DNA of 64,000 bases from an uncultured Christensenella sp. (GCA_949284695.1 CASDWJ010000029.1:25076-89075); one strand, 5' to 3'; counted from the stretch's first letter, positions 8,208 through 49,105 are shown. Program-made: numbers and translations. Notes: generated by a model from the letters alone, not told the origin.

Positions 8208-8226
8208 AAACTTGTGATTTCAAATA

Positions 8227-9417: not shown

Positions 9418-9495
9418 GATACCTCCGTCAAGCTATATAAACTCTTTCCGAAGTCGCTTGTAAAAATCGGATTTTTTTCCTGCCCGTGTTTATTA

Positions 9496-13713: not shown

Positions 13714-14354
13714 TGCAAAATCTCCTTCGCCGCGACGAACCTGCCGTCAAGCGACGCGAACTGTTCGATCCTGACTATGTCGTTTGCCGATGCCCTGACG
13801 CCGAAGCGCGAAAGGCTTTCCACAAAGCTGTCCACGCGCAGATTCTCGTTGCCCGTAGCGAGCGTCATAAACAGTTTATCGCCGTCCGTCTCCAGCGCGT
13901 ATATCCTGCTTCTGACTTCTTCGTCAATCTCCTGCCCTTTCTTTATTCTGCGCATACGGTACTCCGGCATACTCATTATCTTCAGGACTTCGTCCGTTAT
14001 TCTCTCTTCCGCCCTGACCTCGTAAGAAGAAGCGACGACCCTTGCCGCAAGATTGGGATTGCCTTTTGTCACGCGGCAGAGATCCGCCCTCATGCCCGAC
14101 GGCACACATGCGTTGAATCTGTCAAGCAATTCTTCCTCGTCTGTCAGCGGACTGTCGGCGACGAAATACTCGGCTACGCTCTGCACTCCGAGCGGAAGCG
14201 GAGTCGTGGTATAAGTCAGCATATGCGGCACGAATCCTTCGCTGTATCTGACCTCGGCTTTCATTCTCCTCATCGTGCGCTGAAGCACCCTCATCGCGTC
14301 TATATGCGACAAAAAGCTCGCGTCCCCCGTCTTGCGGTGTCTTAACACTATCAT
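13710..14354 (-). CDS. radical-SAM-associated protein (TIGR03936/DUF2344-like)
   Basis: 214 aa from the ATG at 14354, which overlaps the upstream stop (ATGA). DASFLSHIDAMRVLQRTMRR matches the family. The position between the B12-type radical SAM gene and rng is typical. The track ORF is over-extended to 14792. Confidence 0.7.
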   Translation of the reverse strand: MIVLRHRKTGDASFLSHIDAMRVLQRTMRRMKAEVRYSEGFVPHMLTYTTTPLPLGVQSVAEYFVADSPLTDEEELLDRFNACVPSGMRADLCRVTKGNPNLAARVVASSYEVRAEERITDEVLKIMSMPEYRMRRIKKGQEIDEEVRSRIYALETDGDKLFMTLATGNENLRVDSFVESLSRFGVRASANDIVRIEQFASLDGRFVAAKEILQ

Positions 14355-31520: not shown

Positions 31521-31610
31521 TGGCGCAGAGAGAGGGATTCGAACCCTCGGTTGACTTTCATCAACACAGCATTTCGAGTGCTGCACCATCGACCTCTCGG
31601 ACATCTCTGC
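31521..31610 (-). tRNA. tRNA-Ser (anticodon CGA), encoded CCA
   Basis: The reverse complement folds by hand: acceptor GCAGAGA/TCTCTGC, anticodon stem CAGCA/TGCTG with loop CT-CGA-AA, a long variable arm, T-arm GAGGG-TTCGAAT-CCCTC, discriminator G, then CCA. Length is 90 nt. Confidence 0.9.
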
Positions 31611-34457: not shown

Positions 34458-36419
34458 TCATATTTCTTCTATGCAATATCCGTACGGTGAGATCACCTTG
34501 CCGTCGAACGATACCGCTTCATCGTTGTGATTTATCGTGATCCTGACACCGCCTGCCGTGCCCTTTCTGACGACGCTCTCCACTCCTGCGGGAGTGTAGA
34601 AAGTCGCGACGCGACAAAAAGCGCAGACCTTTTGCGCGACGTCGTCGAGCACGCTGTCCTCAGGCGAGCACGCTATATAGAACGCAAGCCCGTTGCCGTA
34701 TCTGTTTTTTGTGACCGCCGCGCCGCCTCTGAAGAAATCGTCGTCGTAGCCGTACAACGTCTCTGCGGTCGTGACTGTGCATTTTTCCCTGAACACTCCC
34801 GCGAATGCGCATCTTTCGGCTGCCGCGCCGTAGCCTTTCAGCTTTGCGCCGTTTTGCTCCCACATGCTCTCGCTCTCGTCGACGGTGAGCCCGAAAAGAC
34901 CTGTCAGCCCTACCGGTAGTTTTTCTCCGAACACCAGGTTGTTGTCCTCGTCCTTGACCGACGTGCGGAAGGTCGCGACGACCGCGCCGCCGCCCGCGAC
35001 GAAAGTTTTCAGCCTTTCGCGTACCTCGGGTCTGCATATCACCATATTGGGCACTATGACCGCCTTGTAGCGTTCGAAGCAGTCGCAGGCGGGGATCACG
35101 TCCACTGGCACGTTGAGCCTGAAAAACGCCGCGTGAAGTCTTTGCATTTCTCTTTCGCCGTCGAATATCTCACTCTGTCTCTGCAACCTGAAAGAAGCGA
35201 GAGAGTCGAAGTCGTAGATCATACATATATCCGCTTTCAACGGCGAATCTGTCTTGCCGTCAAGCGCTTTGAAGTTCCTGAAAAAACGCTGCGCCTCTCG
35301 CCACTTTCTGCCCTCGGTATCGTCGGCGTCGATCAGACCGTAGCAATATTGTTCCGCGCCCTTGACAGCGCCGCGGTACCTGAAGAATACGAGCCCGTCG
35401 CAACCTCTTGCGACAGCCTGCATCGCCCATGCTTCCGCCTGACCGGGTCGCGGCACGAAACCGGTCACGTCGTGCCCCTGCGCGCCCATTATCGCCTCCG
35501 TTATCCAGAAGTTGTCCCCCTTGAGTCCTCTGATATAGTCGAGCGCAAACGCGGTCTCGTCGGGCGACAGAGGTTTTCTCTGCCCTCCCCATACGGGATA
35601 ATTGTTGTAAGCCGTCTTGTCTATGACGCGCGCAACGGCGGCGTAATCGAGACTCTTTGTTAGTCCTCCGCCGGAAAAGTCGTGTATCACCAAAGCCGTC
35701 GGTATAACGCTTTTTATCACGTCGACCTGCATACGTGCAAAGTCGCGTATCTTGTCCGAACAGAATCTCTCCCAGTCAAGTCTCAGCGACGGGTTGTGCA
35801 CGGTTATCGTCGCGTTGGGCGCGTTGATCTCGTCGAAAGAGTTGTACTGCTGACTCCAGAACGCGGTGCCGTATCTTTCGTTGAGCGCGGCGACGTCGCC
35901 GTACTTTTTCTCAAGCCATTTTCTGAAGCCGACGACGCACTTTTCGCACCAGCAGACGTCGCTCCCCTCGTGCCCGAGTTCGTTGTCGATCTGCCAGGCG
36001 ATTATCGCGTCCTCGTCGCGGTAGTGCTCCGCAAGTTTTCTGACGATGCGCCGCGAGCGATCGACGTAGACTTCGCTCGAATAGCAGCACGTATGCCGTC
36101 CGCCGTACGTCCTGACCGTGCCGTCGCGGAACTTCGAAGCGACCTCGGGGTATCTCCTCGCAAGCCATGCCGGCGCGGTCGCGGTCGGCGTGCCGAAGAT
36201 AACTCTGAGCTCTCTTTTCTTCGCTTCTTCTATAACTTTGTCGAAAAAGGAGAAGTCGTACTCTCCCTCCTCGCGCTCCATTATATGCCAGCCGAATTCG
36301 GCTATCCTTACCGTATCGCAACCCAGCCCGACTATCCTGTCGAGATCCCCGGACATAAGCGACTCGTCCCATTGCTCGGGATAATAAGCGACTCCGGCTA
36401 TCGTCGCCACTTCTTTCAT
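34458..36419 (-). CDS. beta-galactosidase, GH42
   Basis: GVAYYPEQWDE..., RIAEFGWHIMEREEGEYDF and WQIDNELG are GH42 hallmarks. ATGA-coupled to the upstream transporter. Confidence 0.9.
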   Translation of the reverse strand: MKEVATIAGVAYYPEQWDESLMSGDLDRIVGLGCDTVRIAEFGWHIMEREEGEYDFSFFDKVIEEAKKRELRVIFGTPTATAPAWLARRYPEVASKFRDGTVRTYGGRHTCCYSSEVYVDRSRRIVRKLAEHYRDEDAIIAWQIDNELGHEGSDVCWCEKCVVGFRKWLEKKYGDVAALNERYGTAFWSQQYNSFDEINAPNATITVHNPSLRLDWERFCSDKIRDFARMQVDVIKSVIPTALVIHDFSGGGLTKSLDYAAVARVIDKTAYNNYPVWGGQRKPLSPDETAFALDYIRGLKGDNFWITEAIMGAQGHDVTGFVPRPGQAEAWAMQAVARGCDGLVFFRYRGAVKGAEQYCYGLIDADDTEGRKWREAQRFFRNFKALDGKTDSPLKADICMIYDFDSLASFRLQRQSEIFDGEREMQRLHAAFFRLNVPVDVIPACDCFERYKAVIVPNMVICRPEVRERLKTFVAGGGAVVATFRTSVKDEDNNLVFGEKLPVGLTGLFGLTVDESESMWEQNGAKLKGYGAAAERCAFAGVFREKCTVTTAETLYGYDDDFFRGGAAVTKNRYGNGLAFYIACSPEDSVLDDVAQKVCAFCRVATFYTPAGVESVVRKGTAGGVRITINHNDEAVSFDGKVISPYGYCIEEI

Positions 36420-37867
36420 ATCTGACCTCCGTCGTCGGGTTTTTTCGTACCCGTGTTGTTTATTTCAATATTTTCGACATCTTCGCCGCCTGTATCGCTG
36501 CTTCCGCCGCGCTGCTTTCTCACGTCGAGTTCTGCAAGTATTCTGCGATAATTCTTATCGCCCAGCCTGTACCCTTTCAGATAGACGGCAAGGCAGACGA
36601 GCATTAGCAAAGCGGGGACGGCGATCATTATTATCCTCATTCCCGCGACCGTCGTCGCCGACTGCACCTTGTTCGCCTCGTAACCTATCACCTTGAGACC
36701 TATGCCCGATACGAGCGCGCTGAACGCACCCGCGAACTTGACGACAAAGGTCTGCGTAGAGAACAGCACGCTCTCGTTCCTCGACCCCATTTTGTACTCT
36801 CCGTAATCGACGACTTCCGAGAGTATGACCGTGAGTATCACGAGCATGAATCCTATGCCGATATTCACGACTACGCTCGACAGCGCGACCCACACCGCGC
36901 TCGTCGGCGCGAAATAACCCGCCGCGAAAAGGAGCGCGAACCCCGCCGCGGGGAGCAGACACGCGAGTATGAACAACAGCTTCTTGCCCACCTTTTTGCC
37001 GAGTATCGGGTAGCCGAGGAGCGCGCCCATCTGCGCGAATCCCGCGACCAGAGTGTAGACCGAGAACAGTTCGTCCTCTACCCCGCAGACGTACTCGAAG
37101 TAGTAGAGCGCAAAGCTGTTGGAGAGCTGATAAGCTATATTGAAAAACAGCGCGATCAGCAATACGACGAGCACCTGATCGTTTTTGAAAAGCACTTTCA
37201 TCATCTTTTTCAGATCTGTCTTTTCGCCGCTGCCCGACGTCGCGACGACCTTCTCGCGGACGTTGAAAACCGTTACGAGCGAGGAGACGACGAATATCAC
37301 GGCGACCGCTATCGCAAAACGCGAAAATCCGAGCGTCCTGCTCTCTCCGCCAAGGTATTTGACGATATAAAGCCCTCCCGAGCCGACGATGAGCCACGCC
37401 ATACTCGCGAAAAAGCGCGGTATAGCGCTGATCTGATTGCGCTCGTTTTCGTCGCTTGTCAGCGCGGGCACCATGCTCCAGTAAGGAATGTCCATCAGCG
37501 TATAGGTCATGCCCCACAGCACGTACATAAACCCGACGTAGACGGCGTACCGCGTCGGAGACAGATCTACGTCGGCGTACATCGCTATCAGCACCGCCGC
37601 GTTTATCAGCGTGCCGACGAGTATCCAGGGTCTGAACTTGCCCCAGCGTGTGCGCGTGTTGTCGACGATAATACCCATAAAGGTATCGTTTACCGCGTCC
37701 CATATTCTTGCGGCGGCGAACAGCACCGCAACGAATACGGGATCCGCAAGTCTGTAATCGGTCAGGTACTTCATAAAAAATGTGGATACGATCGCATAAA
37801 CCATATCCTTGCCGAAAGCGCCTATACCGAACGAAATTTTGCTTTTCCAGCTGAGTTTTTCCTGCAT
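36416..37867 (-). CDS. glycoside-pentoside-hexuronide (GPH):cation symporter
   Basis: 12-TM MFS-like protein. GPH signature RIWDAVNDTFMGIIVDNTRTRWGKFRPWIL. Confidence 0.85.
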   Translation of the reverse strand: MQEKLSWKSKISFGIGAFGKDMVYAIVSTFFMKYLTDYRLADPVFVAVLFAAARIWDAVNDTFMGIIVDNTRTRWGKFRPWILVGTLINAAVLIAMYADVDLSPTRYAVYVGFMYVLWGMTYTLMDIPYWSMVPALTSDENERNQISAIPRFFASMAWLIVGSGGLYIVKYLGGESRTLGFSRFAIAVAVIFVVSSLVTVFNVREKVVATSGSGEKTDLKKMMKVLFKNDQVLVVLLIALFFNIAYQLSNSFALYYFEYVCGVEDELFSVYTLVAGFAQMGALLGYPILGKKVGKKLLFILACLLPAAGFALLFAAGYFAPTSAVWVALSSVVVNIGIGFMLVILTVILSEVVDYGEYKMGSRNESVLFSTQTFVVKFAGAFSALVSGIGLKVIGYEANKVQSATTVAGMRIIMIAVPALLMLVCLAVYLKGYRLGDKNYRRILAELDVRKQRGGSSDTGGEDVENIEINNTGTKKPDDGGQI

Positions 37868-38069
37868 AATTTCTCCAATAAGTTATGTACGTCTCAACTC
37901 CCGCAAGAAAAGTTTTTCCCCATTATGCAAAAAAATACCGCCGCAACGCCCTCTCCTCTGCATTTTGAGAAAAATACGACCGCAAAGCGTTGCCGCCCGT
38001 TTTTCACGTTTTTATATTTTGCGTTGACTAATCACCGTATATAATTTAAAATAGATGTGTGAGGTGACT

Positions 38070-40565
38070 ATGAACTACATTTCTTTATGCGGAGAGTGGA
38101 AGCTCTCAAGAAACGACAGCAACGAAACGGTTACCGCTACGGTACCCGGTTGCAACTTTACCGACCTGCTCGCGGCAGACAAGATCCCCGATCCTTTTCT
38201 CGCGTGCTACGAAAAGAGCGTTCAATGGGTCGGCGAAAAGATATGGACGTACGAAAAGACCTTTCAGGCAGACCATGCGATCCTCTCCTCTGCAAAACAG
38301 GAGATCGTGTTCGAAATGCTCGACACTCTCGCCGAGATCTACCTCAACGGAGAGACGCTCGGCAAAACGCAGAACGCGTACAGAACGTACGTTTTCGACG
38401 TAAAAGGCATACTCAAAGAAGGCGAAAACACGGTCAAAGTCGTGTTCTTCTCCCCTCTCGACTATATCCGTCAATGGCACAAGGCGATGCCTTTGCCCAA
38501 CACGACCGAGGGCGAAGCGGGAAGCTGTCATATCCGCAAACCCGCCTATCACTTCGGCTGGGACTGGGCGCCTCACCTGTTGCATTGCGGCATAATGAAG
38601 CCCGCCTATATCCGCGCATACGACGGCGCGCGCCTTGACGGCGCAAGGATAAGGCAGATACACAAGGACGGCAAAGTCACGCTTGAGATCACGCCCGAGA
38701 TCACCGACGGCGAAAACGAGACCGTAGGTTACAGACTGACCTGCCCCGACGGCGAAACCCTTCTCGCGGCGGGAAAAGGCACGGTGAGCATAACCGTGGA
38801 AAACCCGCAACTCTGGTGGACTGCCGACCTCGGCGGTCAGCCGCTGTACAAACTCGAATGCACCCTCGGCAAACAGACCAGGACTTACAATATAGGTCTC
38901 AGGACTCTCGTCCTCGACCGCTCCGCCGACGAATACGGCGAAAACTTCCGCTTCGTACTCAACGGCGTCGGGATCTTCGCGCGCGGCGCCAACTGGGTGC
39001 CCGCGGACAGCTTCGTCTCGCGCATAAAGCGCGCCGACCTCGAAAGACTGCTCGTATCCGCACGCAACGCCAATATGAACATGCTCCGCGCCTGGGGCGG
39101 CGGCTATTACGAAAGCGACGACTTCTACGACCTGTGCGACAAACTTGGCATACTCGTATGGCAGGACTGCATGTTCGCCTGCTCGCCATACCCATATACG
39201 CGCAAAGACTATATGGAAGAAGTAGCGCTCGAGATCGCGGACAACGTCAGGAGACTGCGTCATCACGCTTCTCTCGCGCTCTGGTGCGGCAACAACGAGC
39301 TCGAGCAGATGAGCGGCGCCTGGATGGTCAGACAGGATATCATCGCGCAGGCGGGCGAGTATTTCTATAAGGAACTGCCCGCGATAATAAAGAAATACGA
39401 CGACGTGACGCCTTACCACCAAAGCTCTCCGAGCGGCAACGGCTATATGAAGAACTACAACAACGACGACTACGGCGACTGCCACCTGTGGAAGGTATGG
39501 CACGGCATGCGTCCGTCCGATTATCTGACAAAGCGCAACCCGCGCTTCTGCAGTGAATACGGTCTGCAATCCCTGCCCCACCGCAACACTCTCGTGCGTA
39601 TCAACGGCGGCGCGATGCCCGCGTCGATGAAAGACCCGGTCATGCAGGCGCACCAGAAAGCGCCTTTCGGCAACAGCCGTACCCTTTTCTATATCGTCGA
39701 CCGCTTCTGGTCTCCCGACAATATGGACGACCTCGTATATATGACCCAGCTGAGTCAGGCGTATTGCGCAAGGGTCGCGACAGAAAGCTGGCGCACGAGA
39801 AAGGGACGTTGCAACGGTTCGCTTTACTGGCAGCTCAACGACTGCTGGGGCGTGACGAGCTGGTCGGGATACGACTATTACGGCAACCCCAAGGCGGTGC
39901 ATTACGAGGCAAAGCGCTTCAACGCGCCGCAGACCGTCGTGATACTCAACGATAAAAACGAGCGCAGGATAACCGCGATCAACGATACCCTTGCCGACGC
40001 AGACTTCGACGTTGTGTACGGCATGAAGTCTTTCGACGGAAAGACCGTCTACGAACAGACCCGTCCCGTATCCCTCAAGGCGGGCGAAAGCAAGGAGATC
40101 GCCCGCATAAATCCCAAAGACCACCACGGCGGCAAGCACTGCGTCGTCTTTGCTGTGATGAAGACCAAAGACGGCAGAACGGTCGCCGAGAGATACCATA
40201 CCGCGTTCAAAGAGAAAAAATGTTCTCTGCCCGATCCCGCTATAAGCGTCGCGACGTCTCTCGACAACGGCGTTTACCGCATAGACCTCGCGGCAAAAAC
40301 GTATGCGCGCGGCGTGGAAATTTCTCTGACCGGTATCGACGGAGAATTTTCGGACAACTTCTTCGATATGCCCGCAGGCGGCAAAGCAAGCGTTAGCATA
40401 CGCGTCGGCTCCGACGATAAGGCGGAACTCGACAAGGCGCTCAGAGTGCGTAGCCTTTACGATGTCAGGCGCAAGCAGAACGGCATAAAAGACACGTTCT
40501 TTGCGACGAAAGTGTTCTTCGAGCCGTATAATCTCGTCAACTGGATTTACAGGACAAAGGAGTGA
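38070..40565 (+). CDS. beta-mannosidase, GH2
   Basis: LCGEWKL...VPGCNFTDLLAADKIPDPF N-terminus. LVWQDCMFACSPYP and WCGNNE motifs. GAGGTG RBS before the ATG at 38070. Confidence 0.85.
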   Translation: MNYISLCGEWKLSRNDSNETVTATVPGCNFTDLLAADKIPDPFLACYEKSVQWVGEKIWTYEKTFQADHAILSSAKQEIVFEMLDTLAEIYLNGETLGKTQNAYRTYVFDVKGILKEGENTVKVVFFSPLDYIRQWHKAMPLPNTTEGEAGSCHIRKPAYHFGWDWAPHLLHCGIMKPAYIRAYDGARLDGARIRQIHKDGKVTLEITPEITDGENETVGYRLTCPDGETLLAAGKGTVSITVENPQLWWTADLGGQPLYKLECTLGKQTRTYNIGLRTLVLDRSADEYGENFRFVLNGVGIFARGANWVPADSFVSRIKRADLERLLVSARNANMNMLRAWGGGYYESDDFYDLCDKLGILVWQDCMFACSPYPYTRKDYMEEVALEIADNVRRLRHHASLALWCGNNELEQMSGAWMVRQDIIAQAGEYFYKELPAIIKKYDDVTPYHQSSPSGNGYMKNYNNDDYGDCHLWKVWHGMRPSDYLTKRNPRFCSEYGLQSLPHRNTLVRINGGAMPASMKDPVMQAHQKAPFGNSRTLFYIVDRFWSPDNMDDLVYMTQLSQAYCARVATESWRTRKGRCNGSLYWQLNDCWGVTSWSGYDYYGNPKAVHYEAKRFNAPQTVVILNDKNERRITAINDTLADADFDVVYGMKSFDGKTVYEQTRPVSLKAGESKEIARINPKDHHGGKHCVVFAVMKTKDGRTVAERYHTAFKEKKCSLPDPAISVATSLDNGVYRIDLAAKTYARGVEISLTGIDGEFSDNFFDMPAGGKASVSIRVGSDDKAELDKALRVRSLYDVRRKQNGIKDTFFATKVFFEPYNLVNWIYRTKE

Positions 40566-40568
40566 CGT

Positions 40569-41381
40569 ATGAAAAAAGAATTTTTCACCACTCCTCTGAC
40601 TTCTCTCGCCGCGACGCTGTGCGACTTCGCGGGAGTACAGCCGCCCGAATTTGCCGCGCCCGCCTGCAAAGAACTCAAAGACGCACTCGTCGCGCAGAGC
40701 GGCAGGACAAGCGTGGACAGGATATTGATGTACACCCCCGACGCCGTCGCCGACTACATCTACGACAAATATTACGACAAGTTCGCGCCCTGCGAAAAGA
40801 TAGCGCCCGTCAGACAGCGGTTCATCACGGTCAACCCGCCCAAAACCCCCGTCTGCTTCGCGAGTATGTACACGGGCGCGCAACCCGAAAAACACGGCAT
40901 AACCAAATACGAAAAACCAGTCGTGAAGATTGACAGCGTGTTCGACGCGTTTATACGCGCGGGCAAAAAGCCGTGCATAGTCAGCGTAAAAAATCAGAGC
41001 ATGGACAAGATCTTCCGCGAGCGCGATATGGCGTATTATCAGGAAGCCTACGACGAAGAAGTCGTCGACCGTGCGCTCGAGCTGATAGAAAAAGACGAGT
41101 ACGATCTGATATGCGTATACAATCAGAGCTACGACGACTCGATGCACCGCACGCACCCCAACAGCAAACGCTCTCAGCGCGCGCTCGGTCTGTATGCGTC
41201 CTCTTTCGTCAAACTTGGAGAAAAAGTCAATACTTGTTGGCAAAATCACGACACGCTGATAGGCTTTGCACCCGATCACGGCGTGCACAGAATGTGGATA
41301 GGGCTGGGCAATCACGGCAGTTATATCCCCGAGGATATGAACATATCTCACCTTTACGGCATTATCCCTGAAAAGGCATGA
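40569..41381 (+). CDS. compact alkaline-phosphatase-superfamily protein (NPP / type I phosphodiesterase-like)
   Basis: 270 aa. LMYTPDAVA is a candidate metal-binding Asp. PKTPVCFASMYTGAQPEKHGI resembles PTxTxPxxxSxxTGxxPxxHGI. APDHGVH resembles sDHGM. It starts 4 nt after the beta-mannosidase stop. Confidence 0.6.
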   Translation: MKKEFFTTPLTSLAATLCDFAGVQPPEFAAPACKELKDALVAQSGRTSVDRILMYTPDAVADYIYDKYYDKFAPCEKIAPVRQRFITVNPPKTPVCFASMYTGAQPEKHGITKYEKPVVKIDSVFDAFIRAGKKPCIVSVKNQSMDKIFRERDMAYYQEAYDEEVVDRALELIEKDEYDLICVYNQSYDDSMHRTHPNSKRSQRALGLYASSFVKLGEKVNTCWQNHDTLIGFAPDHGVHRMWIGLGNHGSYIPEDMNISHLYGIIPEKA

Positions 41382-41400
41382 TTTGGTCCGACTTGACAAA

Positions 41401-41424
41401 AACGCGGCAAGTCCGCGTTTTTTT
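41401..41424 (+). terminator. terminator of the mannosidase operon
   Basis: aacgcgg-caagt-ccgcgtt followed by ttttt. Confidence 0.7.
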
Positions 41425-41603
41425 ATGTCTCGAGTCTGCTTTTGGTCTCACAAAACGCGGCTTTTCTTATGGTTTCCCGCTCAAAATTTTCTCCCGTTGC
41501 CGCCTCCCTTGTCCGGTCTCTGCCGCTCATTTGTTTTTTGTGACGCGGTCTCTTTCGCAATGCCGCAGGTATATACGCGCGCGCAGACGTCAATCATATT
41601 GTT

Positions 41604-42299
41604 ATGATATACAAGATTCTGCTCAACAGCGTCATAGCGTTCGTTTCTCTTTTCTTCATCGCAAAAATCCTCGGCAAAAAACAGATAGCGGAGCTCACTT
41701 TCTGCGACTACGTGGTGGGCATATCTCTCGGCTCAATTTCCGCAGAATGGGCGATCGACGACGAAAAACCCTGGTACGTTTACTGCACGGCAATATTGAT
41801 CTTCTTCGCGTTCAGCCTGATAGTTGACTTTGCCGAAAGAAAAAGTCCGTTCCTGAAAAAGATGTTCAAAGGCTCGCCGATAGTGCTCATCAGCGACGGA
41901 AAAATCGACTACATCAATCTCAAAAAGAGCAAGCTCGACGTCAATGCACTGCTTGGCATGTGCCGCGTGGCGGGGTACTTCGATCTGCGCGACGTCGCCT
42001 ATGCGGTTTTCGAGACGGGAGGCGAACTCAGCATCCTGCCCCGCTCCGACCGCCGCGCCGCGACTACGGAAGAACTCGGCGTAGTCACGCAAAAAGCGAG
42101 ACTAGTCCTCCCCTTCGTGATAGACGGAATGATATTTGACGACGCGCTCGCCCGCGCCGGCAAGTCGAGGGAGTGGCTGTTTGAAAAACTGCAGGGCAAA
42201 GACGTAAAACGCGTGCTCCTCGCCTCGTACGACCCCGAAAGCGACAAACTCACCCTGAGCATGAAAAACACCCGCAAATTCGCAGATATAGCAAAATGA
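41604..42299 (+). CDS. DUF421 (YetF-like) membrane protein
   Basis: N-terminal TM segments with GKKQIAELTFCDYVVGISLGS. C-terminal domain with VLISDGKIDYINLKKSKLDVNALL. Confidence 0.7.
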   Translation: MIYKILLNSVIAFVSLFFIAKILGKKQIAELTFCDYVVGISLGSISAEWAIDDEKPWYVYCTAILIFFAFSLIVDFAERKSPFLKKMFKGSPIVLISDGKIDYINLKKSKLDVNALLGMCRVAGYFDLRDVAYAVFETGGELSILPRSDRRAATTEELGVVTQKARLVLPFVIDGMIFDDALARAGKSREWLFEKLQGKDVKRVLLASYDPESDKLTLSMKNTRKFADIAK

Positions 42300-42308
42300 A
42301 AACGCGTA

Positions 42309-42337
42309 TTGACAACGCTTCTCGGTTGGTCTATGAT
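42309..42337 (+). promoter_or_regulatory. promoter of the YhhN-family gene (possibly a leaderless transcript)
   Basis: TTGACA (42309-42314), a 17-nt spacer, then TATGAT (42332-42337). The ATG at 42344 is only 7 nt downstream of the -10, and there is no RBS. Confidence 0.45.
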
Positions 42338-42343
42338 TAAGTT

Positions 42344-43054
42344 ATGGTTTTCTTCTATATTATAGGCGGGCTGTGCGTGGCGAGTTCTATTGCCAAAGCG
42401 TACTTCGATACGAAAAAAAATGTTAAGCCGGAGTTCATCGCAAAACTTCTCGCAAGCGTCAGCTTTATGTTCTGCGCGGTCTACGCGATATACAACAATC
42501 CCGACGCGGTCGAGTACGGGATCTTCATCCTGTGCGCGCTGATATTCGGCACGATAGGCGATATACTTCTCTGCCTCGACGGCTTCTTCCCCGACAACGA
42601 AAACTACTATAAATTCTTCAACACGGTGGGCACCGCGACCTTCTTCATCGGTCACTTGATGTATATGGCTCTGCTTTTCGTCTACGCGCCGATAAGCAGG
42701 ACTCCCTTCCTTCTCCTCGCCCTGCCGATAATGCCTCTGATAATGCTCGCGCTGATACTCACGGGACAAATATCTTTGCCCAGAATAAAGAGCTACCTTA
42801 TGGTCGTATACTTCCTCGTCGCGGGCGGAGTGATAATAGGAGCGGTCTCCTTCGTGATAAACGCCCATTCTTCGCCTGTCGGCTGGATAGTGCTCGCCGC
42901 GTCGATACTGTTCGCGTTTTCAGACTGCTTCCTCGGGCTGTTCCACTACTGCCCCGCGCTGAAGATAAGCGAAAAGGTCGCGCCGTATATCGTGATGCCT
43001 ACATATTGCATAGCGCAGGTGCTTTACGCGCTGTCGATATACTATATCGCCTGA
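42344..43054 (+). CDS. YhhN-family (lysoplasmalogenase-like) membrane protein
   Basis: 8-TM protein. FGTIGDILL and LFAFSDCFLG resemble the two conserved YhhN motifs. Confidence 0.65.
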   Translation: MVFFYIIGGLCVASSIAKAYFDTKKNVKPEFIAKLLASVSFMFCAVYAIYNNPDAVEYGIFILCALIFGTIGDILLCLDGFFPDNENYYKFFNTVGTATFFIGHLMYMALLFVYAPISRTPFLLLALPIMPLIMLALILTGQISLPRIKSYLMVVYFLVAGGVIIGAVSFVINAHSSPVGWIVLAASILFAFSDCFLGLFHYCPALKISEKVAPYIVMPTYCIAQVLYALSIYYIA

Positions 43055-43082
43055 CGAAAATTTAATTGTATTTCTAAAAGTA

Positions 43083-43111
43083 TTGACAAATTTATTTTAA
43101 TCGGTTATAAT
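43083..43111 (+). promoter_or_regulatory. consensus sigma-70-type promoter of the 903-aa island gene
   Basis: TTGACA (43083-43088), an exact 17-nt spacer, then TATAAT (43106-43111). AAGGAGG lies at 43138-43144, and the ATG is at 43156. Confidence 0.65.
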
Positions 43112-43155
43112 AATCTTCGGTAATACTTCAGAATTGCAAGGAGGTACTGAAGATC

Positions 43156-45867
43156 ATGGCGGGAGTTTATTATAAAAACGTAAGCAACAACGAAATCGAA
43201 AACGAATATGACGTATTCATCGGCTATCACGGCGTTTTTTCAGAGAGCAGCAGTTCTCTAAAGGAAGCCGAGGAGATTGCCCTTTATCTTTACAGCATCG
43301 GATTGAAACCCTTCCTGTTCAACAAATTCTGTTACGAAGCTGACAAGAACATTTACTTTCAGCGTACAGGACAAATTGCCAGACGCTCCAAGGCGTTTTT
43401 GATCGTTCTGAAACACTTTGACAATCTACAGCACATAATAAACGAAAACGGTATTTCTCCGCAGACTCAGCTTTTCGACGAAATCGGCGCATTCATTGAC
43501 GCAAAGCCCGACTGCGCGTTCATCAATGCCGTATATTTCGGACCTGACGATCTGGATCTCAGATCTTTTTACAGAAACATAGGTATCAACGGCGTATCGA
43601 TCAACAACTCCCCCATTACGTCCGGTAACGGCGAAAGCGTGCGTTTTGCAAGTCCTTGTGCCGTTCTCTATTACAAATTGCAAAACTGGCTTCATACTTG
43701 CGGCATATACACGAAAGAGCCAGCCGTCGCCGCAGACGCGGTAACTCTTAGTTACATAGACTACCCTCTGCCGAAATACGCAGACAATGCCACGGCTACC
43801 AGCCTGAAAATAGATTTTCTGCAAGATCTTTACCTCAAATTGCGCTGCAACGCGAGAGAACTGAATCTCGAGATACTTGACAATTACCTAGCCATACTTA
43901 CTGCGATAAAAGCTCATTACAAGCATCTCAGCACGGCGGTGTCTCAGCTAGAAGTTATCGTAAACGCCGCAAAAGAGACCCACAAAGAGGGGCAGATCAG
44001 AGTCAGCGTATTTATCAAACAAAAGATAGATTACTTTCAGAACGCTATTTCCAGTCTCGCTTCGGCAAGTGAAAAGATTATCAGGGAGAACGACAGCGTC
44101 CTGATATTCAGCAGAAGTTCCAGCGTCGAAGAGGTACTCAATACCGACGTCGAGAAAAAAAGCTCGGTATCCGTATACATCGCAGAATGCCGCCAGAAAA
44201 GTCCCTCGTCGTTCGCCGACGCAAAATGCTTCTACAACGGTATCAAGCAGAACAACTACGCAAAGTTTGTGTTTATATCCGACGCGACGGCATGTCAATA
44301 CATAACTTCGGGCAAGATAACCAAAGTCTTTATCGGGGCATGCAGCGTAATCACCGACGAAGACGGTCAGATAACCGAAATAGTCAACACCAACGGAAGT
44401 GCGGTGATAATCGACGCGGCGTTAAGACACAATATCCCCGTTTTTGTTTTTTACACAGAGGACAAGATCGTTGAAGTAAAGGACAGGGATTCGATATTCC
44501 TGCATGACAACGAAAGTATAATTTCAGAAGAAAACCCGGAAAACGGCGTATCATATGCCGACGAAAAATACTCTTTCATAAAGCGGAGACCCAATATGGT
44601 TTTCGTAACGAACGGCGGCACTATGAGCACCGACGATTATCTGTCGTATTTCCGCAGAGACACGTGGAAGGACGCCCGAAAAATTGCCAACTGCAACATG
44701 TGCCATTCAGAGCAAAAATGCTTTGTCAAATCGTGTATAAGCGAAGAAGAATTCAAAGTCGAACTCGCGATACTCAAATATATTGACGGCAAATACCCGC
44801 ATGCCGCCAGACTGTTGAGTTCCAACGCAAAAAAAGCGTCGTTCCACCTTGAAAAAATATCCGGCGCAAGGCTTTATGAAATAATAATGCTCTTGTCCGA
44901 ACTCGGGCGCAGAGGCGTTGCTATTGCGGACACCCTGAAAAACGGTCTGATTAACGAATGCAATAAGCACCAAAACTGCTTGACACTCAAATCCGGATCC
45001 GTACTTGACAATTTTTACAAAACCTATCGCAACGGCAATTCTCCTCTTGTCCCTTATCCCAAGTCAAAGATACGGGAAATGCTTCACAGCATGATCTACG
45101 TACACAGGTACATACTCGGCAGAAAACTCGATTACAACAGAGTAACTCTTGAAAACCAGATCGACGAGCTTTACAACGTCTTTGAAGAAAACGCCAACGT
45201 CCTGTTCCGCGACTCGACGGTTAAGAACATGGTACTCGAAGATATTGCCCTCGACGGTCTCGATCAACTCGAGACTCCGGACAAATATTATACCGCTCTC
45301 AGAAAGCTCAAGGCGATCATAACCTCTCCGTTTTTCGCTGAGGGAAATAGCGACGAAGATACGGTCAAAGACTATCTGCGCAAGCACAAAATACGTGAAT
45401 TCGACTTTTCCTCCTGCGTAAACCTTACAACAAAATGGGATGATCTGATCGGTCTTAATCTGCACGAATCCGTCTATTGTACTCGACAACTGAACAAGGT
45501 GTTGTCAAAACTCAAGCGTCAGAACAGGGCAGTCGAGATAGACGATCCGTGCACGGTTTTCATCACATCTCTGATCGTAAGATACATACGCTTCGGAGGG
45601 CGCAAATATCTGTACAGGTATCTCAATCCAAAGATCCACGCTGTCAGATTCCTTTACGACGACGAGAATTTCTATTTCAATACGCTTCAACATATATGCA
45701 ACGAAGTCCCTCGCAAAGATTGTCTCGAAAATTACAGCGAGATCATTTCCGTACTCAGGCAGATCGGCAGTTACCCACACGAATCAATGCCCTTTGATTC
45801 CATGGAAGCGATTTATCCCGAGGATGCCAAAAACAGGACTCCCTGGATGGGACTTTACAAATTGTAA
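43156..45867 (+). CDS. 903-aa multidomain protein: N-terminal TIR-like domain, central eIF2B/MtnA-like module, C-terminal APH/MtnK-type kinase-like domain (function unknown)
   Basis: Long uninterrupted ORF with a strong RBS. TIR-like: YDVFIGYHG, RRSKAFLIVL, QLFDEI, INAVYFGPDDLD (aa about 18-135). eIF2B-like: SVLIFSRSSSVEEVL, VSVYIAECRQKSP, FISDATACQYI, KVFIGACSVITDEDGQITEIVNTNGSAVIIDAALRHNIPVFVF, MVFVTNGG (aa about 285-495). Kinase-like: FRDSTVKNMVL, REFDFSSC (aa about 505-880). All domain calls are by eye. Confidence 0.6.
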   Translation: MAGVYYKNVSNNEIENEYDVFIGYHGVFSESSSSLKEAEEIALYLYSIGLKPFLFNKFCYEADKNIYFQRTGQIARRSKAFLIVLKHFDNLQHIINENGISPQTQLFDEIGAFIDAKPDCAFINAVYFGPDDLDLRSFYRNIGINGVSINNSPITSGNGESVRFASPCAVLYYKLQNWLHTCGIYTKEPAVAADAVTLSYIDYPLPKYADNATATSLKIDFLQDLYLKLRCNARELNLEILDNYLAILTAIKAHYKHLSTAVSQLEVIVNAAKETHKEGQIRVSVFIKQKIDYFQNAISSLASASEKIIRENDSVLIFSRSSSVEEVLNTDVEKKSSVSVYIAECRQKSPSSFADAKCFYNGIKQNNYAKFVFISDATACQYITSGKITKVFIGACSVITDEDGQITEIVNTNGSAVIIDAALRHNIPVFVFYTEDKIVEVKDRDSIFLHDNESIISEENPENGVSYADEKYSFIKRRPNMVFVTNGGTMSTDDYLSYFRRDTWKDARKIANCNMCHSEQKCFVKSCISEEEFKVELAILKYIDGKYPHAARLLSSNAKKASFHLEKISGARLYEIIMLLSELGRRGVAIADTLKNGLINECNKHQNCLTLKSGSVLDNFYKTYRNGNSPLVPYPKSKIREMLHSMIYVHRYILGRKLDYNRVTLENQIDELYNVFEENANVLFRDSTVKNMVLEDIALDGLDQLETPDKYYTALRKLKAIITSPFFAEGNSDEDTVKDYLRKHKIREFDFSSCVNLTTKWDDLIGLNLHESVYCTRQLNKVLSKLKRQNRAVEIDDPCTVFITSLIVRYIRFGGRKYLYRYLNPKIHAVRFLYDDENFYFNTLQHICNEVPRKDCLENYSEIISVLRQIGSYPHESMPFDSMEAIYPEDAKNRTPWMGLYKL

Positions 45868-45895
45868 TGCGATTGCAGTTAAACACTCTGCGCAA

Positions 45896-45928
45896 CAAAA
45901 AAGGTTCCGTAATTCGGAACCTTTTTTG
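45896..45928. terminator. bidirectional terminator shared by the island gene and the convergent transporter
   Basis: aaaaaa-ggttccg-taatt-cggaacc-tttttt. Confidence 0.8.
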
Positions 45929-45956
45929 TCACCACATCGCTTTAATGCTGCAAACC

Positions 45957-47369
45957 TTATTTTTCTGTCCCACAATTTTTTCTTGCTTCAAGTTCTTTTT
46001 TGATCTCGGCGAACCTCTCTCTGCCCATATTCGCGCGGTAGGCGAATATCACTGATATAAGGAATATCACGCTGGGTACGACCGCAAGCACGACTCTTAT
46101 CGCGATCAGCGCCGACTCAGGCTGATCTATCACGGTGTTGTCAGTGCTCTCTATATAGCCGAAAAGCTCGAGCACGAGCGAGACCACCGCGACGGCAACG
46201 CCCGAAGCGAGCTTGTACATAAACTGCGTGATCCCGTAAAACGCGCCCTCTCTCCTGACGCCGTTGACGTATTCGTCGACCTCGACGACGTCGGGCAGGC
46301 TCGCATAAGGCAGTATCTGTATCGCGGACATGCCGAGCCCTGCGATAACGCACATCAAGACCGTGCTCCATACGACCTGTTCGGGCACGAAAAGCGCGAG
46401 CGACAGCGCGAGGGTCATATATACGCACGCGACGGCGTAAACCTTGTGTTTGCTGAACTTCTCGCTCGCCTTGACCCATATGAAAGAGGACAGTATCGCG
46501 CAGACAAGCGGCGTTGCGATAAACACCATGCTCATCGTGCCGCCTCCGAAGCCCATCGTGTCGTTGATGAAGAACATGAACACGCTCATTATTATATCGA
46601 AGCCGACCATGCTGAGAAGATATGTCGCGATCACGTTGCGGAATTCTTTGAGTCTGAAAAGCTCTTTGAGGGTCGTGAAGAACCCCTGAGTGTTCTCGTG
46701 AGACGTTTCCTTGTTTTCCTTTACAGTCAGCGAGCAGACGAAGAATATCAGCGAAGCGAGCACGCCGAATATGACGGACGCTACTGCGTATGCCTTGCTG
46801 AGAGACCCGAGCGCGCCGTAAAGTATGCTCTCGGTGCCGTCTGCGAGCAACGCGAATACCGCCGCGCCGAGGAGCATGCCGACGTTGGTCATCGCTATCC
46901 TTATGCCGCTGATCGAAGTGCGCTCGTCGTAATCGTCGGTCATGTTGGCGGTCAGCGCGTTGTACGGGATATAGACGACCGTCCAGACCGTGTTGTAAAG
47001 CATGTATACGAGCGTGTAGTAGATCATCTTGGCGACCTGCGCGTTTTCTCCGAAAGGCGCAAGCCATAGCAGAATGAAACTCAGACCGTAGGGTATCGCG
47101 CCGAAGATCATATACACCCTGCGCTTGCCCCATTTGCCGAACTTGGTCTTGTCGACTATCCTGCCCATCATATAGTCGGTGATCGCGTCCCACGCGCGGG
47201 CGATGATGAACACCACCGACGCGAGACCGGCTTTGAGACCTCCGACGTTTACGAAAAAGTAAAGCAGATAAAAAGATATGGCGGCGAACAGAATGTTCAC
47301 CGACATATCGCCGCTGCCGTAAGCAATTTTCTGACCCAAAGATATCTTACCTTTGCGCTCTTCTTCCAT
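45957..47369 (-). CDS. GPH-family sugar:cation symporter
   Basis: 12-TM protein. ARAWDAITDYMMGRIVDKTKFGKWGKRRVYMIFG is a GPH-type motif. Confidence 0.8.
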   Translation of the reverse strand: MEEERKGKISLGQKIAYGSGDMSVNILFAAISFYLLYFFVNVGGLKAGLASVVFIIARAWDAITDYMMGRIVDKTKFGKWGKRRVYMIFGAIPYGLSFILLWLAPFGENAQVAKMIYYTLVYMLYNTVWTVVYIPYNALTANMTDDYDERTSISGIRIAMTNVGMLLGAAVFALLADGTESILYGALGSLSKAYAVASVIFGVLASLIFFVCSLTVKENKETSHENTQGFFTTLKELFRLKEFRNVIATYLLSMVGFDIIMSVFMFFINDTMGFGGGTMSMVFIATPLVCAILSSFIWVKASEKFSKHKVYAVACVYMTLALSLALFVPEQVVWSTVLMCVIAGLGMSAIQILPYASLPDVVEVDEYVNGVRREGAFYGITQFMYKLASGVAVAVVSLVLELFGYIESTDNTVIDQPESALIAIRVVLAVVPSVIFLISVIFAYRANMGRERFAEIKKELEARKNCGTEK

Positions 47370-47386
47370 AATTTTTTCCCGGAGAC

Positions 47387-49105
47387 TTATCTGTATTTTT
47401 TCATTTCCTCGTCGATTATCTCTCTGACCTTTGCCACGCAGTCCTTGATCGCGACTCTTTCCGCCTTCTTGGTCGCGCGCATGCAGATCTCGACCTCGCC
47501 GTCTGCGAGCGTCTTGGGAGAGACGACCATTCTGATCGGCATACCCATGAGATCCGCGTCGGCAAACTTGACTCCCGCGCCGCAGTTCCTGTCGTCGAAA
47601 AGCACCTCTACGCCGCTCTCCTCGAGCTGTTTCAAGACCTCGTCGGCGTTCTTCCTGACGTTCTCGTCGTCATAACGGAGCACGCAGATATGCACCTGCC
47701 ACGGAGCGACCGACATCGGCAGTATCAGACCGTTTTCGTCGTTGGATTCTTCGGCAATCGAAGCGATCGCCCTGCCCACGCCTATGCCGTAACAACCCAT
47801 TATCGGGTTGAACGCCTGACCGTCCCTGCCGTGCACGGTCATGCCCATAGCCTTGGTGTATTTTGTGCCCAGCTGGAATATATTGCCTATTTCGATACCG
47901 TTCTCGACCCTGAGTTCGCCTCCGCAGACGGGGCATCTCTGACCCGCTTTGACCTTGGATACGTCGACGTATTTCACGTTCTTGAAATCGCGGTCGGGGC
48001 TGACTCCCGTATAGTGATACTCGGGCTTGTTGGCGCCGCATACCATATTGTTCGTGCCCTCGATCGACTTGTCGAAGATCACGGTCAGTTTGTCCGAAAG
48101 CCCTATCGCGCCGATATTGCCGCAGACGATGTCCTCGCTGATACCGCCGTCGTAAGCGACGACGTTCTTGCCCAGCGCCTTTTTGAGTTTGGCTTCGTTG
48201 ACCTCGAGATCACCTCTGACGAACGCGACGACAAGTTCGTCCTGCTCGCCTTTCACGGCGTAAACGACCGCCTTGATCGTCTTATACTCCGGTATATTCA
48301 GCCTCTTGCAGACTTCTTCTATCGTCTTGTCCTCGCCCGTGAACACCTCTTTGAGTTCGCACGGCTCGTCGTCGTGCTTGTCGAGCACAGAAGTCGCGAC
48401 TTCCATATTCGCGCGGTAATCGCAGTCGTTGCAGAACACGATACTGTCCTCTCCCGCCTCCGTTATCAGCATAAACTCGTGAGCGATACTGCCGCCCATC
48501 ATGCCGGTGTCGGACTTTACGTCAACAAACTTTTTGAGTCCTATCCTTCTGAAAATGCGGTAGTACGCGTCGAACATCCTGTAATAATACTCCCCGAGTT
48601 CTTTCGCGTCGTTGTGGAAGGAATAAGCGTCCTTCATCGTGAATTCCCTGACTCTTATGAGTCCGCCGCGAGCGCGCGCCTCGTCGCGGTATTTGGTCTG
48701 GATCTGATATATCATCATCGGCAGCTGCTGATAGCTCGAAACCGTATGGTTGGCAAGATGCACCGCCGCTTCTTCGTGCGTCATGCCGAGGAGCATATCG
48801 TGCTCGTTCCTGTCCTTGAAGCGCACCATTTCGGAGCCTATCGAGGTATATCTGCCGCTGGACTCCCACAGCTCTCTGGGCATAACGACGGGGAAAAGCA
48901 CTTCCTGCCCGTCTTCTCTGTCCATTTCCTCGCGGATTATAGCCTGGATCTTTCTGCTCATTCTCTGGCAGGGCGGGGTCATCGTATAAATACCTCCGTA
49001 AACCTGCTTGATAAATCCCGCTCTCGACAGGAGAACGTGGCTTCTGATCTTAGCGTCCTGAGGCGCTTCTTTGGTCCTTTCGCATACCAGCTTGCTGAGT
49101 AACAT
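47387..49105 (-). CDS. proS: prolyl-tRNA synthetase (bacterial type with editing insertion)
   Basis: 572 aa from the ATG at 49105. Class II motifs, e.g. LLSRAGFIKQ, RFKDRN...LLGMTHEE, REFTMKDAYSF, GCYGIGVGR. Confidence 0.95.
   Translation of the reverse strand: MLLSKLVCERTKEAPQDAKIRSHVLLSRAGFIKQVYGGIYTMTPPCQRMSRKIQAIIREEMDREDGQEVLFPVVMPRELWESSGRYTSIGSEMVRFKDRNEHDMLLGMTHEEAAVHLANHTVSSYQQLPMMIYQIQTKYRDEARARGGLIRVREFTMKDAYSFHNDAKELGEYYYRMFDAYYRIFRRIGLKKFVDVKSDTGMMGGSIAHEFMLITEAGEDSIVFCNDCDYRANMEVATSVLDKHDDEPCELKEVFTGEDKTIEEVCKRLNIPEYKTIKAVVYAVKGEQDELVVAFVRGDLEVNEAKLKKALGKNVVAYDGGISEDIVCGNIGAIGLSDKLTVIFDKSIEGTNNMVCGANKPEYHYTGVSPDRDFKNVKYVDVSKVKAGQRCPVCGGELRVENGIEIGNIFQLGTKYTKAMGMTVHGRDGQAFNPIMGCYGIGVGRAIASIAEESNDENGLILPMSVAPWQVHICVLRYDDENVRKNADEVLKQLEESGVEVLFDDRNCGAGVKFADADLMGMPIRMVVSPKTLADGEVEICMRATKKAERVAIKDCVAKVREIIDEEMKKYR

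Follow-up and report, generated by a model that had tools for sequence, protein, structure and literature searches.

The locus and the organisation of its protein

The stretch of DNA analysed here, referred to below as the window, comprises 64,000 nucleotides from an uncultured Christensenella sp. (GCA_949284695.1, CASDWJ010000029.1:25076-89075). It contains an open reading frame (ORF) encoding a protein which, as judged by sequence comparison, has three parts: a divergent TIR domain is followed by a domain resembling the IF-2B family of sugar-phosphate isomerases and eIF2B subunits and then by a domain of the APH/choline-kinase fold (Table 1). A first-pass annotation had singled out the interval 44008-44640, which lies within this ORF and corresponds to residues 285-495, as an eIF2B/MtnA-like module apparently lacking a catalytic Asp and hence as a candidate ligand sensor. 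The present analysis is concerned with what this domain is, what it has lost and kept, and what its partners suggest about its role.

Table 1. Features of the ORF and its immediate surroundings (window coordinates)
Feature	Position	Strand	Remarks
Single-gene insertion, 2.9 kb	43058..45975	+	Promoter, gene and terminator, between YhhN and a convergent MFS transporter gene
Sigma-70-type promoter	43083..43111	+	TTGACA-17-TATAAT, 12/12 matches
Shine-Dalgarno sequence AAGGAGG	43138..43144	+	11 nt 5' of the ATG; read from the sequence
ORF, 903 residues	43156..45867	+	TIR-like, IF-2B-like and APH-fold kinase-like modules
Divergent TIR domain	43195..43698	+	Residues ~14-181; invariant Glu109 at 43480-43482
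IF-2B-like N-terminal helical subdomain	43756..44079	+	Residues ~201-308; from model helices (205-308) and profile alignment
IF-2B-like Rossmann-like subdomain	44080..44622	+	Residues ~309-489; most of the interval first flagged
Ser319-Arg320-Ser321	44110..44118	+	Ser319 in place of catalytic Cys; Ser321 at the invariant 5-phosphate ligand position
Cys396	44341..44343	+	In place of the catalytic Asp of the GAD motif
NTNGS	44386..44400	+	Residues 411-415; counterpart of NKIGT
Lys437	44464..44466	+	Equivalent of a 5-phosphate ligand
C-terminal APH/choline-kinase-fold domain	44623..45864	+	Residues 490-903; without Pfam family
Catalytic loop FRDSTVKN	45205-45228	+	Asp686, Asn691
DFS motif	45403-45405	+	Asp750
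Perfect 15-bp hairpin between A-run and T-run	45895..45929	.	From inverted-repeat search

A complete IF-2B-fold domain

The proposed resemblance to the IF-2B family proved well founded. Pfam family PF01008 matches residues 271-445 of the window protein with an E value of 4.9e-11 and a score of 42.8 bits, compared with a gathering score of 22.4, and the corresponding scores of relatives reach 75 bits. When the single sequence was used to search the PDB the matches were marginal (E around 1); a profile of 28 members of the clade matched, along the whole domain, the ribose-1,5-bisphosphate (R15P) isomerases of P. horikoshii (E=2.6e-21) and T. kodakarensis (E=8.8e-21), with the alignment beginning at residue 24 of the isomerase, and gave weaker matches to eIF2B beta, alpha and delta and to MtnA. 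The motifs originally quoted are all present as described: QKIDYF starts at residue 289, SVSVYIAECRQKSP at 337 and FISDATAC at 373, while GAC occupies residues 394-396, NTNGS 411-415 and MVFVTNGG 481-488. Motifs common to the domain and the IF-2B isomerases are ExRPK, D(S/A)A, N-x-x-G-(S/T), AE-x-x-K and ITE-x-G.

Structure prediction points in the same direction. For the full protein an AlphaFold (AF2) model based on 150 relatives reached an overall pLDDT of 80 and a pTM of 0.75; it is confident in the C-terminal domain and in the IF-2B region, across which pLDDT is around 85-95. All of the best 50 Foldseek matches in the PDB are eIF2B alpha, beta or delta, R15P isomerase or M1P isomerase, with E values from 7e-10 and 280-340 aligned columns, and model and matches alike contain an N-terminal helical bundle followed by a Rossmann-like domain. 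The R15P isomerase-type enzymes, having this same two-subdomain fold along their whole length, are the best matches by both sequence and structure. Since both profile and fold matches cover the whole length, the domain spans residues ~200-489 (about 43754-44622) and is larger than first thought: the interval previously flagged captured the Rossmann-like part, and the N-terminal helical subdomain (residues 205-308) lies mostly upstream of 44008. The sequence and model comparisons thus identify this region as a genuine IF-2B-fold domain, a relative of the sugar-phosphate isomerases and eIF2B.

The possibility of an ordinary MtnA or e2b2 metabolic gene was considered and rejected: the catalytic residues are gone, the protein is multidomain and its gene lies in an accessory insertion. 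The NCBIfam equivalogs score well under their cut-offs (TIGR00511, 19.9 bits compared with 314; TIGR00524, 16.6 compared with 186).

Loss of catalytic residues and retention of half the pocket

In P. horikoshii R15P isomerase the catalytic residues are Cys135 and Asp204; mutating either ends isomerisation, with substrate still held by the C135S and D204N mutants (PMC5789824). The 1-phosphate is bound by Arg22, Arg65, Gln166 and Lys215, the 5-phosphate by Ser137, Lys240 and backbone amides and the sugar by Asp204, Asn214 and Lys215, while Glu160 and Arg162 are among the residues forming dimer salt bridges (PMC5789824). The corresponding columns were read from an alignment of this enzyme with 84 IF-2B-like domains of the clade (Table 2).

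Table 2. Functional residues of P. horikoshii R15P isomerase and their counterparts in 84 IF-2B-like domains
Isomerase residue	Role	Column in the clade	Window protein
Cys135 (in 'THCHS')	Catalytic	S71/A6/G5/V1/I1; Cys 0/84	Ser319 (in 'IFSRS')
Asp204	Catalytic; sugar	H62/C9/D3/V3/N3/others	Cys396
Ser137	5-phosphate	S 84/84	Ser321
Lys240	5-phosphate	K 82/84	Lys437
Asn214	Sugar	N 79/84	Asn411
Gly217		G 84/84	Gly414
Lys215	1-phosphate; sugar	T68/A8/S4; Lys 0/84	Thr412
Gln166	1-phosphate	Mostly Pro; Gln 0/84	Pro350
Arg65	1-phosphate	R43/K28 of 84	Lys252 (conservative change)
Glu160	Dimer salt bridges	Kept in 73/84	Glu344
Arg162	Dimer salt bridges	Kept in 71/84	Arg346

To judge from these columns, both of the residues that define an isomerase are absent from the window protein and, Cys being found in none of the 84 sequences and Asp in only three, nearly throughout the clade. 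The Asp of the GAD motif (Asp204 in P. horikoshii, Asp202 in T. kodakarensis) aligns with Cys396, and the change from GAD to GAC noted in the first-pass annotation is upheld by the profile alignment as well as by the 84-sequence column. That annotation spoke of the Asp only: the second catalytic residue is replaced too, by Ser319. The counterparts of this catalytic Cys135 are Cys133 in the T. kodakarensis enzyme and Cys160 in B. subtilis MtnA. In the profile alignment with R15P isomerase the homology is far above chance and the catalytic residues are still absent. At the former Asp position T, Y, Q and G are also found; Cys there is exclusive to the TIR-IF2B-kinase subfamily, every member of which has it.

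The pocket has fared unevenly. Of the 1-phosphate ligands Lys215 and Gln166 are lost, and the 5-phosphate/sugar half is kept, its ligand residues Ser321, Lys437 and Asn411 being 94-100% conserved. The observation that NKIGT here reads NTNGS also holds good, and within it Asn411 is retained, Lys215 becomes Thr412 and Gly414 is invariant. The domain is most likely, on this sequence evidence, a catalytically disabled member of the R15P-isomerase/eIF2B fold. It shares with the IF-2B isomerases the ligands of 5-phosphate and sugar, as well as the Glu/Arg pair of dimer salt bridges; it differs in that they are free-standing metabolic enzymes, whereas it is embedded in a multidomain protein and has lost the catalytic Cys and Asp and the 1-phosphate ligands.

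The same pattern is described for eIF2B-alpha, in which the 5-phosphate/sugar site persists, the 1-phosphate site does not and another residue takes the place of the catalytic Cys (PMC5789824), and in which sugar phosphates (fructose 6-phosphate) bind in the same pocket, promoting decamer assembly (PMC8187479). The literature thus bears out the earlier remark that regulatory eIF2B binds sugar phosphates without catalysis (PMC5789824; PMC8187479). The Lys that binds phosphate and the Asn that binds sugar are present in both proteins, the counterpart of Lys240 in eIF2B-alpha being Lys234 (PMC5789824; PMC8187479), and both have a replaced catalytic Cys and no 1-phosphate site. There are nevertheless differences: the acidic Glu198 occupies the Asp position of eIF2B-alpha and binds the sugar, whereas the clade has His or Cys there, and the window protein is bacterial, lacks eIF2B partners and is fused to TIR and kinase-like domains.

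The C-terminal kinase-like domain

Residues 490-903, a segment of 414 residues, match no family in Pfam, NCBIfam, PADLOC or PHROG, and the same applies to the stand-alone relative P0022, which matches no curated family such as Pfam APH (PF01636). A dedicated model of the domain has a pLDDT of 93. Foldseek aligned this with the PDB entries 3csv (a putative APH), 8agy and 2qg7 and with LicA, PsiK and MTR kinase, the classes matched including corramycin phosphotransferase and ethanolamine/choline kinases (E values 5e-5 to 1e-2, TM-scores up to 0.58); a BFVD fold search gave weak kinase or NTP-transferase matches only. Among 80 homologues Asp686, Asn691, Asp750, Asp762, Asp763, Arg809, Arg812 and Arg816 are invariant, the β-strand residue Lys525 is Lys in 68 and Arg in nine, and the helix residue Glu536 is conserved in 76. 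The catalytic loop has the consensus FRDxxxKN, and residues 812-817 form an RFGGRK motif.

Sequence and model together describe a bilobal APH/choline-kinase fold with intact catalytic D/N/D residues. Kinases of the APH/choline-kinase type share with it the bilobal fold, the D-x4-N of the catalytic loop, the Mg-binding Asp of the DFx motif and the β-strand Lys/helix Glu pair; unlike them, it falls in no Pfam or NCBIfam family and carries the extra invariant motifs RFGGRK, DD and RF-YD-FYF. Since the catalytic-loop, DFx Asp and Lys/Glu residues are maintained in this way, the domain is predicted to be an active phosphotransferase.

Some relatives of the domain carry an NTP_transf_3 (MobA-like) domain fused N-terminally. 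This arrangement was seen in cyanobacteria (L024, L029, L032, L036, L038) and in the betaproteobacteria Hydrogenophaga (L035) and Pigmentiphaga (L037), at loci with no IF-2B-like gene nearby. By its composition the fusion resembles the kinase plus nucleotidyltransferase pairs of sugar activation, which hints at the type of substrate, and such fusions suggest that the kinase product is a phosphorylated small molecule passed to the next module.

The divergent N-terminal TIR-like domain

The N-terminus of the window protein, taken alone (residues 1-200), is not matched by Pfam TIR, and the family hidden Markov model (HMM) covers residues 14-161. In an alignment of 12 N-termini, that of the window protein and those of 11 homologues, Phe21, Tyr24, Gly26 and Glu109 are invariant, and the resulting 12-member profile finds in the PDB the TIR domain of SARM1/TIR-1 (E=1.2e-5 to 4e-5), followed by plant TIRs. 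Pfam TIR_2 matches nine of the 12, the window protein not being among them, and the TIR region of the AlphaFold model is of low confidence (pLDDT ~50-60). Glu109 falls on the Glu of the SARM1 'KE' sequence, the catalytic Glu642. The DVFI-Y-G start motif and the position of Glu109 on the catalytic Glu are shared with SARM1/TIR-1 and bacterial TIR NADases, from which the window TIR differs in being very divergent and in lacking a Pfam TIR match on its own. Its nearest neighbours are the TIR domains of TIR-SIR2-IF2B-like proteins, with 25-28% identity compared with 15-20% for others. The earlier suggestion of a sensor lying next to a TIR domain was thus right as to the neighbour, for which the best SARM1 profile match speaks, and overlooked both the kinase-like module and the modular family to which the protein belongs.

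A modular family with exchangeable N-termini

Relatives were sought by an exhaustive HMMER search of 1.84 billion representatives (50% clustering), which gave 176 family proteins at E<=1e-3. A word-indexed search with the whole protein found only its 90% cluster and one fragment, and with the 28-sequence domain alignment almost nothing; since HMMER finds the family, the word index evidently misses it. Mapping of domains in the relatives with custom HMMs, Pfam and PADLOC distinguished five architectures: TIR-IF2Blike-kinaselike (830-915 residues), as in the window; calcineurin-type phosphoesterase-IF2Blike-kinaselike (1020-1090 residues); SIR2_2-IF2Blike (550-590 residues); the kinase-like domain alone (~375 residues); and NTP_transf_3-kinaselike. 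The phosphoesterase N-terminus matches PADLOC model PDLC00736 ('Effector', 'Endonuclease'; E=2e-21) and the SIR2 part matches PADLOC ThsA (E=9e-25). Triple fusions, TIR-SIR2-IF2B-like, occur at four loci (L018, L021, L057, L062).

Where the kinase-like domain is not fused it tends to be encoded next door. A scan for the kinase-like core in one genome per species gave 35 loci, at 12 of which a SIR2-IF2Blike or TIR-SIR2-IF2Blike gene is followed immediately by a stand-alone kinase-like gene, often with an overlap between the two; at 11 of these 12 an adh_short dehydrogenase of ~230 residues is encoded directly upstream. Among the 65 loci from a metagenome scan the kinase-like gene directly follows SIR2-IF2B-like in ~30, the operon of short-chain dehydrogenase (SDR), SIR2-IF2Blike and kinase-like genes is complete in 28 and the phosphoesterase fusion is present in eight. 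This operon, apparently unannotated hitherto, is the commonest form of the family. Its products have ~230 residues (adh_short), 560-590 (ThsA-like SIR2-IF2B-like) and 370-400 (kinase-like), with overlaps between genes frequent; examples are L017:6951-10606, L013, L016, L019, L023, L027, L033 and L045-L106, besides many others. Hosts include Clostridia, Mollicutes, Bacteroidota, Fibrobacterota, Pseudomonadota, Actinomycetota, Holophagales (Acidobacteriota) and Paceibacterota (candidate phyla radiation, CPR).

The IF-2B-like and kinase-like modules, joined in one chain or coupled in translation, thus constitute a conserved pair. By comparison of these sequences, the N-terminal position is an exchangeable slot, variously filled by TIR, SIR2, TIR plus SIR2 or phosphoesterase.

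Individual loci vary on these themes. Porcipelethomonas ammoniilytica (L021) has two paralogous TIR-SIR2-IF2B-like genes (7215-9443 and 13783-16536), the first alone being followed by a kinase-like gene and the second encoding ~218 additional N-terminal residues. Another arrangement of the same modules is found at L009, where a kinase-like gene truncated at the end of the contig (3-737) precedes a separate protein of 359 residues (1017-2096) with a TIR-like N-terminus (Pfam TIR_2, E=2e-4). The gene that immediately follows the kinase-like one encodes a HAD Hydrolase_3 phosphatase at L013:10658-11473 and L027:10612-11391, a Fe-alcohol dehydrogenase at L011:10670-11842 and, at L010:10606-11628, L023 and L028, a protein of 341-366 residues without a Pfam match whose examples are 35-38% identical to one another. 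In the Chitinophagaceae metagenome-assembled genome of L010 the SIR2-IF2B-like gene (7702-9440) is divided into three ORFs, one for SIR2 and two for pieces of the IF-2B-like domain, representing either a pseudogene or frameshifts in long-read assembly.

A strain-variable cassette under purifying selection

Comparison by blastn of window positions 41000-48000 with the syntenic loci L107 and L108 aligned 41603-43057 and 45976-47966, and nothing between. These loci, located through their MFS orthologues, come from closer-than-genus relatives, with MFS proteins 87-89% identical and the same synteny, which lack the gene: the gap between YhhN and MFS is there just 40-130 bp and contains a hairpin. 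In the window the 15-bp hairpin at 45895-45929 is a bidirectional terminator common to the ORF and the convergent MFS gene. The gene has a GC content of 45.1%, or 55.5% at third codon positions (GC3), compared with 51-56% and 68-73%, respectively, for its neighbours.

A 90%-identical orthologue is present on six metagenomic contigs in the same context, the order being GH42, MFS, GH2, phosphodiesterase, DUF421, YhhN, the gene itself, MFS and prolyl-tRNA synthetase (ProRS). Relative to this orthologue (L001) the ratio of non-synonymous to synonymous substitution rates, dN/dS, is 0.11 overall and 0.16, 0.10 and 0.08 for the TIR, IF-2B-like and kinase-like modules, respectively, with the key residues all unchanged. 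The gene is under purifying selection. The empty site, the low GC and GC3 and the dN/dS ratio together indicate a horizontally acquired, strain-variable and functional single-gene cassette. Insertion by a recognisable mobile element was rejected, since the insertion is not marked by flanking repeats, a tRNA or an integrase. The upstream YhhN and DUF421 genes, considered as possible members of the system, were likewise discounted: their GC content is host-like, the empty site has them too and they are not found beside the relatives.

A possible ligand-gated switch

We would put at about even the chance that the IF-2B-like domain is a non-isomerase, ligand-binding and oligomerising switch that connects a kinase-like input with a TIR output. 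In view of its fold, D/N/D residues and fusion partners, the kinase-like domain would act on a small metabolite with a hydroxyl group, probably one of the sugar or nucleoside class, and the phosphorylated product would be handed on to the next module, here the IF-2B-like pocket. There Ser321, Lys437, Asn411 and Gly414 would hold the phosphorylated ligand; as the pocket residues are kept and the Cys and Asp are absent, it would be held and not turned over. Ligand binding would then change the closure or assembly of the domain, so switching on the effector, and the TIR domains, once brought together, would cleave NAD+ by means of Glu109. TIR NADases, SARM1 and bacterial TIRs alike, require self-association for activity. 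That pocket occupancy drives assembly in eIF2B-alpha, and that TIR NADases need assembly, together support this model. Further support comes from a pocket that would still hold a phosphosugar-type ligand without isomerising it, the obligatory pairing with an apparently active kinase, the exchangeable N-terminal slot, whose occupants are toxic effectors in Thoeris, CBASS and related systems, and the accessory behaviour of the gene.

By analogy, such a switch would parallel both the sugar-phosphate-promoted assembly of eIF2B through eIF2B-alpha and the gating of SIR2 by SLOG in ThsA. The ThsA of type I Thoeris is a SIR2-SLOG protein gated by 3'cADPR, and relatives of the window protein resemble it in having a ThsA-like SIR2 followed by a C-terminal domain of a nucleotide- or sugar-phosphate-binding type, with a partner gene adjacent. 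The logic of a ligand-gated NADase would be the same, and ThsA is the closest functional analogue. The family differs in having an IF-2B-like domain in place of SLOG and, as partner, an APH-fold kinase-like protein (plus dehydrogenase) and not the TIR protein ThsB; the window protein differs additionally in having TIR instead of SIR2 and all its modules in one chain. It does not qualify as Thoeris, since it lacks SLOG, a ThsB partner and any PADLOC match.

Ligand-gated effectors that deplete NAD+ are central to bacterial immunity, as exemplified by ThsA with SLOG, TIR-SAVED and the SIR2 effectors of CBASS or Pycsar type. An exchangeable effector slot is typical of conflict systems, anti-phage or abortive-infection, and by analogy we infer a defence role here, as we infer ligand binding, kinase activity and its substrate, and NADase activity. 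The fuller proposal is possible, though we hold it only tentatively: an undescribed family of conflict systems in which an APH-fold kinase, aided in the operon form by the dehydrogenase, would write a phosphorylated signal of sugar or nucleotide type, to be read by a dead R15P-isomerase/eIF2B-like domain that switches on TIR, SIR2 or nuclease.

Several observations weigh against this proposal or the switch on which it depends. PADLOC-DB 2.0 contains no match for the window protein, those of its relatives being limited to the SIR2 and phosphoesterase domains, and running PADLOC on eight large neighbours of relatives gave nothing, no defence-island context being seen. No family match was found in plasmids and phages by tblastn, and no confirmed match in IMG/VR. 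The window TIR goes unrecognised by Pfam alone and is modelled with low confidence. The commonest family form carries a short-chain dehydrogenase, with a HAD phosphatase or Fe-alcohol dehydrogenase in some cases, and cyanobacteria and betaproteobacteria have the kinase-like domain joined to NTP transferases, all of which lends the family a metabolic flavour. Lastly, the strongly conserved His that 62 of the 84 sequences have in place of the Asp and the conserved Ser in place of the Cys could be a new catalytic pair; either that His or the Cys found in nine sequences could support other chemistry.

The last two points lead to the alternative that survives best, one we nevertheless consider unlikely: the IF-2B-like domain would remain an enzyme, with a new active site of Ser and His (Cys in the TIR subfamily) acting on the kinase product, in a pathway for an NAD- or nucleotide-derived sugar whose substrate is supplied by TIR, SIR2 or phosphoesterase and which the dehydrogenase and phosphatase complete. 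The conserved operon with adh_short and the HAD Hydrolase_3 or Fe-alcohol dehydrogenase genes downstream at some loci would then be readily understood, as would fusion to NTP_transf_3, familiar from sugar-activation pathways, and the prevalence of Ser (71/84) and His (62/84) at the two former catalytic positions. Precedent exists in methionine salvage, of which MtnK (APH fold) and MtnA (IF-2B fold) are consecutive enzymes, MtnK being among the fold matches of the kinase-like domain. However, the former Asp position is variable (H, C, D, V, N, T, Y, Q, G), accommodating even the non-ionisable Val and Gly; the 1-phosphate ligands needed for substrates of the MtnA/R15P isomerase type are lost; and C135S kills catalysis in the P. 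horikoshii enzyme (PMC5789824). Nor is swapping among TIR, SIR2 and nuclease-like phosphoesterase easily explained as substrate supply, and the window gene is a strain-variable single-gene insertion near which the window has no dehydrogenase or phosphatase gene.

A second alternative, in our view improbable, is a fused circuit resembling Thoeris, with TIR making an ADP-ribose-derived signal whose ribose-5-phosphate moiety is read by the IF-2B-like pocket, the kinase serving to trigger or modify. It gains from the triple fusions, which place TIR, ThsA-like SIR2 and IF-2B-like in one chain, from the kinship of the window TIR with those very fusions and from the pocket, of which the half that binds 5-phosphate and sugar is the conserved one. 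Yet most members (SIR2-IF2B-like, phosphoesterase-IF2B-like-kinase) have no TIR and still keep pocket and kinase partner, and therefore the common source of the signal is more likely to be the kinase; in addition, the PADLOC search of the window protein gave no ThsB-like or SLOG match.

A role as scaffold only, in which an IF-2B-like dimer or hexamer positions TIR or SIR2 without any ligand and the kinase-like domain is the sensor, for instance a pseudokinase-like receptor for a phage protein or nucleotide, would suit the need of TIR NADases for self-association and seems to us improbable as well. Although IF-2B-family proteins are obligate dimers, hexamers or decamers (PMC5789824; PMC8187479) and the Glu/Arg pair of the dimer salt bridges is conserved, the pocket residues away from the interface (Ser321 in 84/84, Lys437 in 82/84, Asn411 in 79/84, Gly414 in 84/84) are conserved beyond that pair, and the full set of catalytic residues in the kinase-like domain speaks against a pseudokinase.

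An IF-2B/eIF2B-fold sensor partnered by an APH-fold kinase is not among the modules in PADLOC or the literature searched. In that incomplete search we found no family model, PADLOC entry or paper joining the IF-2B/eIF2B/MtnA fold with TIR or SIR2, or describing the kinase-like family, and no relevant report pairing a short-chain dehydrogenase with SIR2, TIR, SLOG or defence; PHROGs gave nothing meaningful for the window protein. There is a realistic chance that the family represents a new signalling pathway, its nearest known kinds being ligand-gated NADase or nuclease conflict systems and non-catalytic IF-2B-fold sensors. Were the switch reading true, it would define a family of ~180 detectable members (50% clustering) having a new sensor domain and a new mode of signal making, phosphorylation rather than cyclisation: in effect, a kinase-based immune second-messenger pathway, with the regulatory eIF2B fold at work in bacterial immunity as a counterpart of sugar-phosphate sensing by eIF2B-alpha. 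Were the family metabolic instead, it would offer new enzyme chemistry on an isomerase scaffold, tied to NAD+ cleavage.

Other features of the window

The insertion lies in glycan-utilisation surroundings (34458-41381 and 45957-47369) of host-like GC, to which it is unrelated: the genes there encode a GH42 beta-galactosidase, two GPH/MFS sugar transporters, a GH2 beta-mannosidase-like protein and a type I phosphodiesterase-like protein. Opposite the GH2 and phosphodiesterase genes, the reverse strand contains an ORF of 1097 residues (38106-41399), which in all likelihood arose by chance in coding DNA rich in GC. The sole tRNA of the window, a tRNA-Ser with anticodon CGA (31521-31610, reverse strand), is 11.5 kb from the insertion, with nothing linking the two. 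A terminator-like hairpin (41398-41422) follows the phosphodiesterase-like gene, and a near-consensus promoter, TTGACA-17-TATGAT (11/12 matches; 42309-42337), is located just 5' of the YhhN gene.

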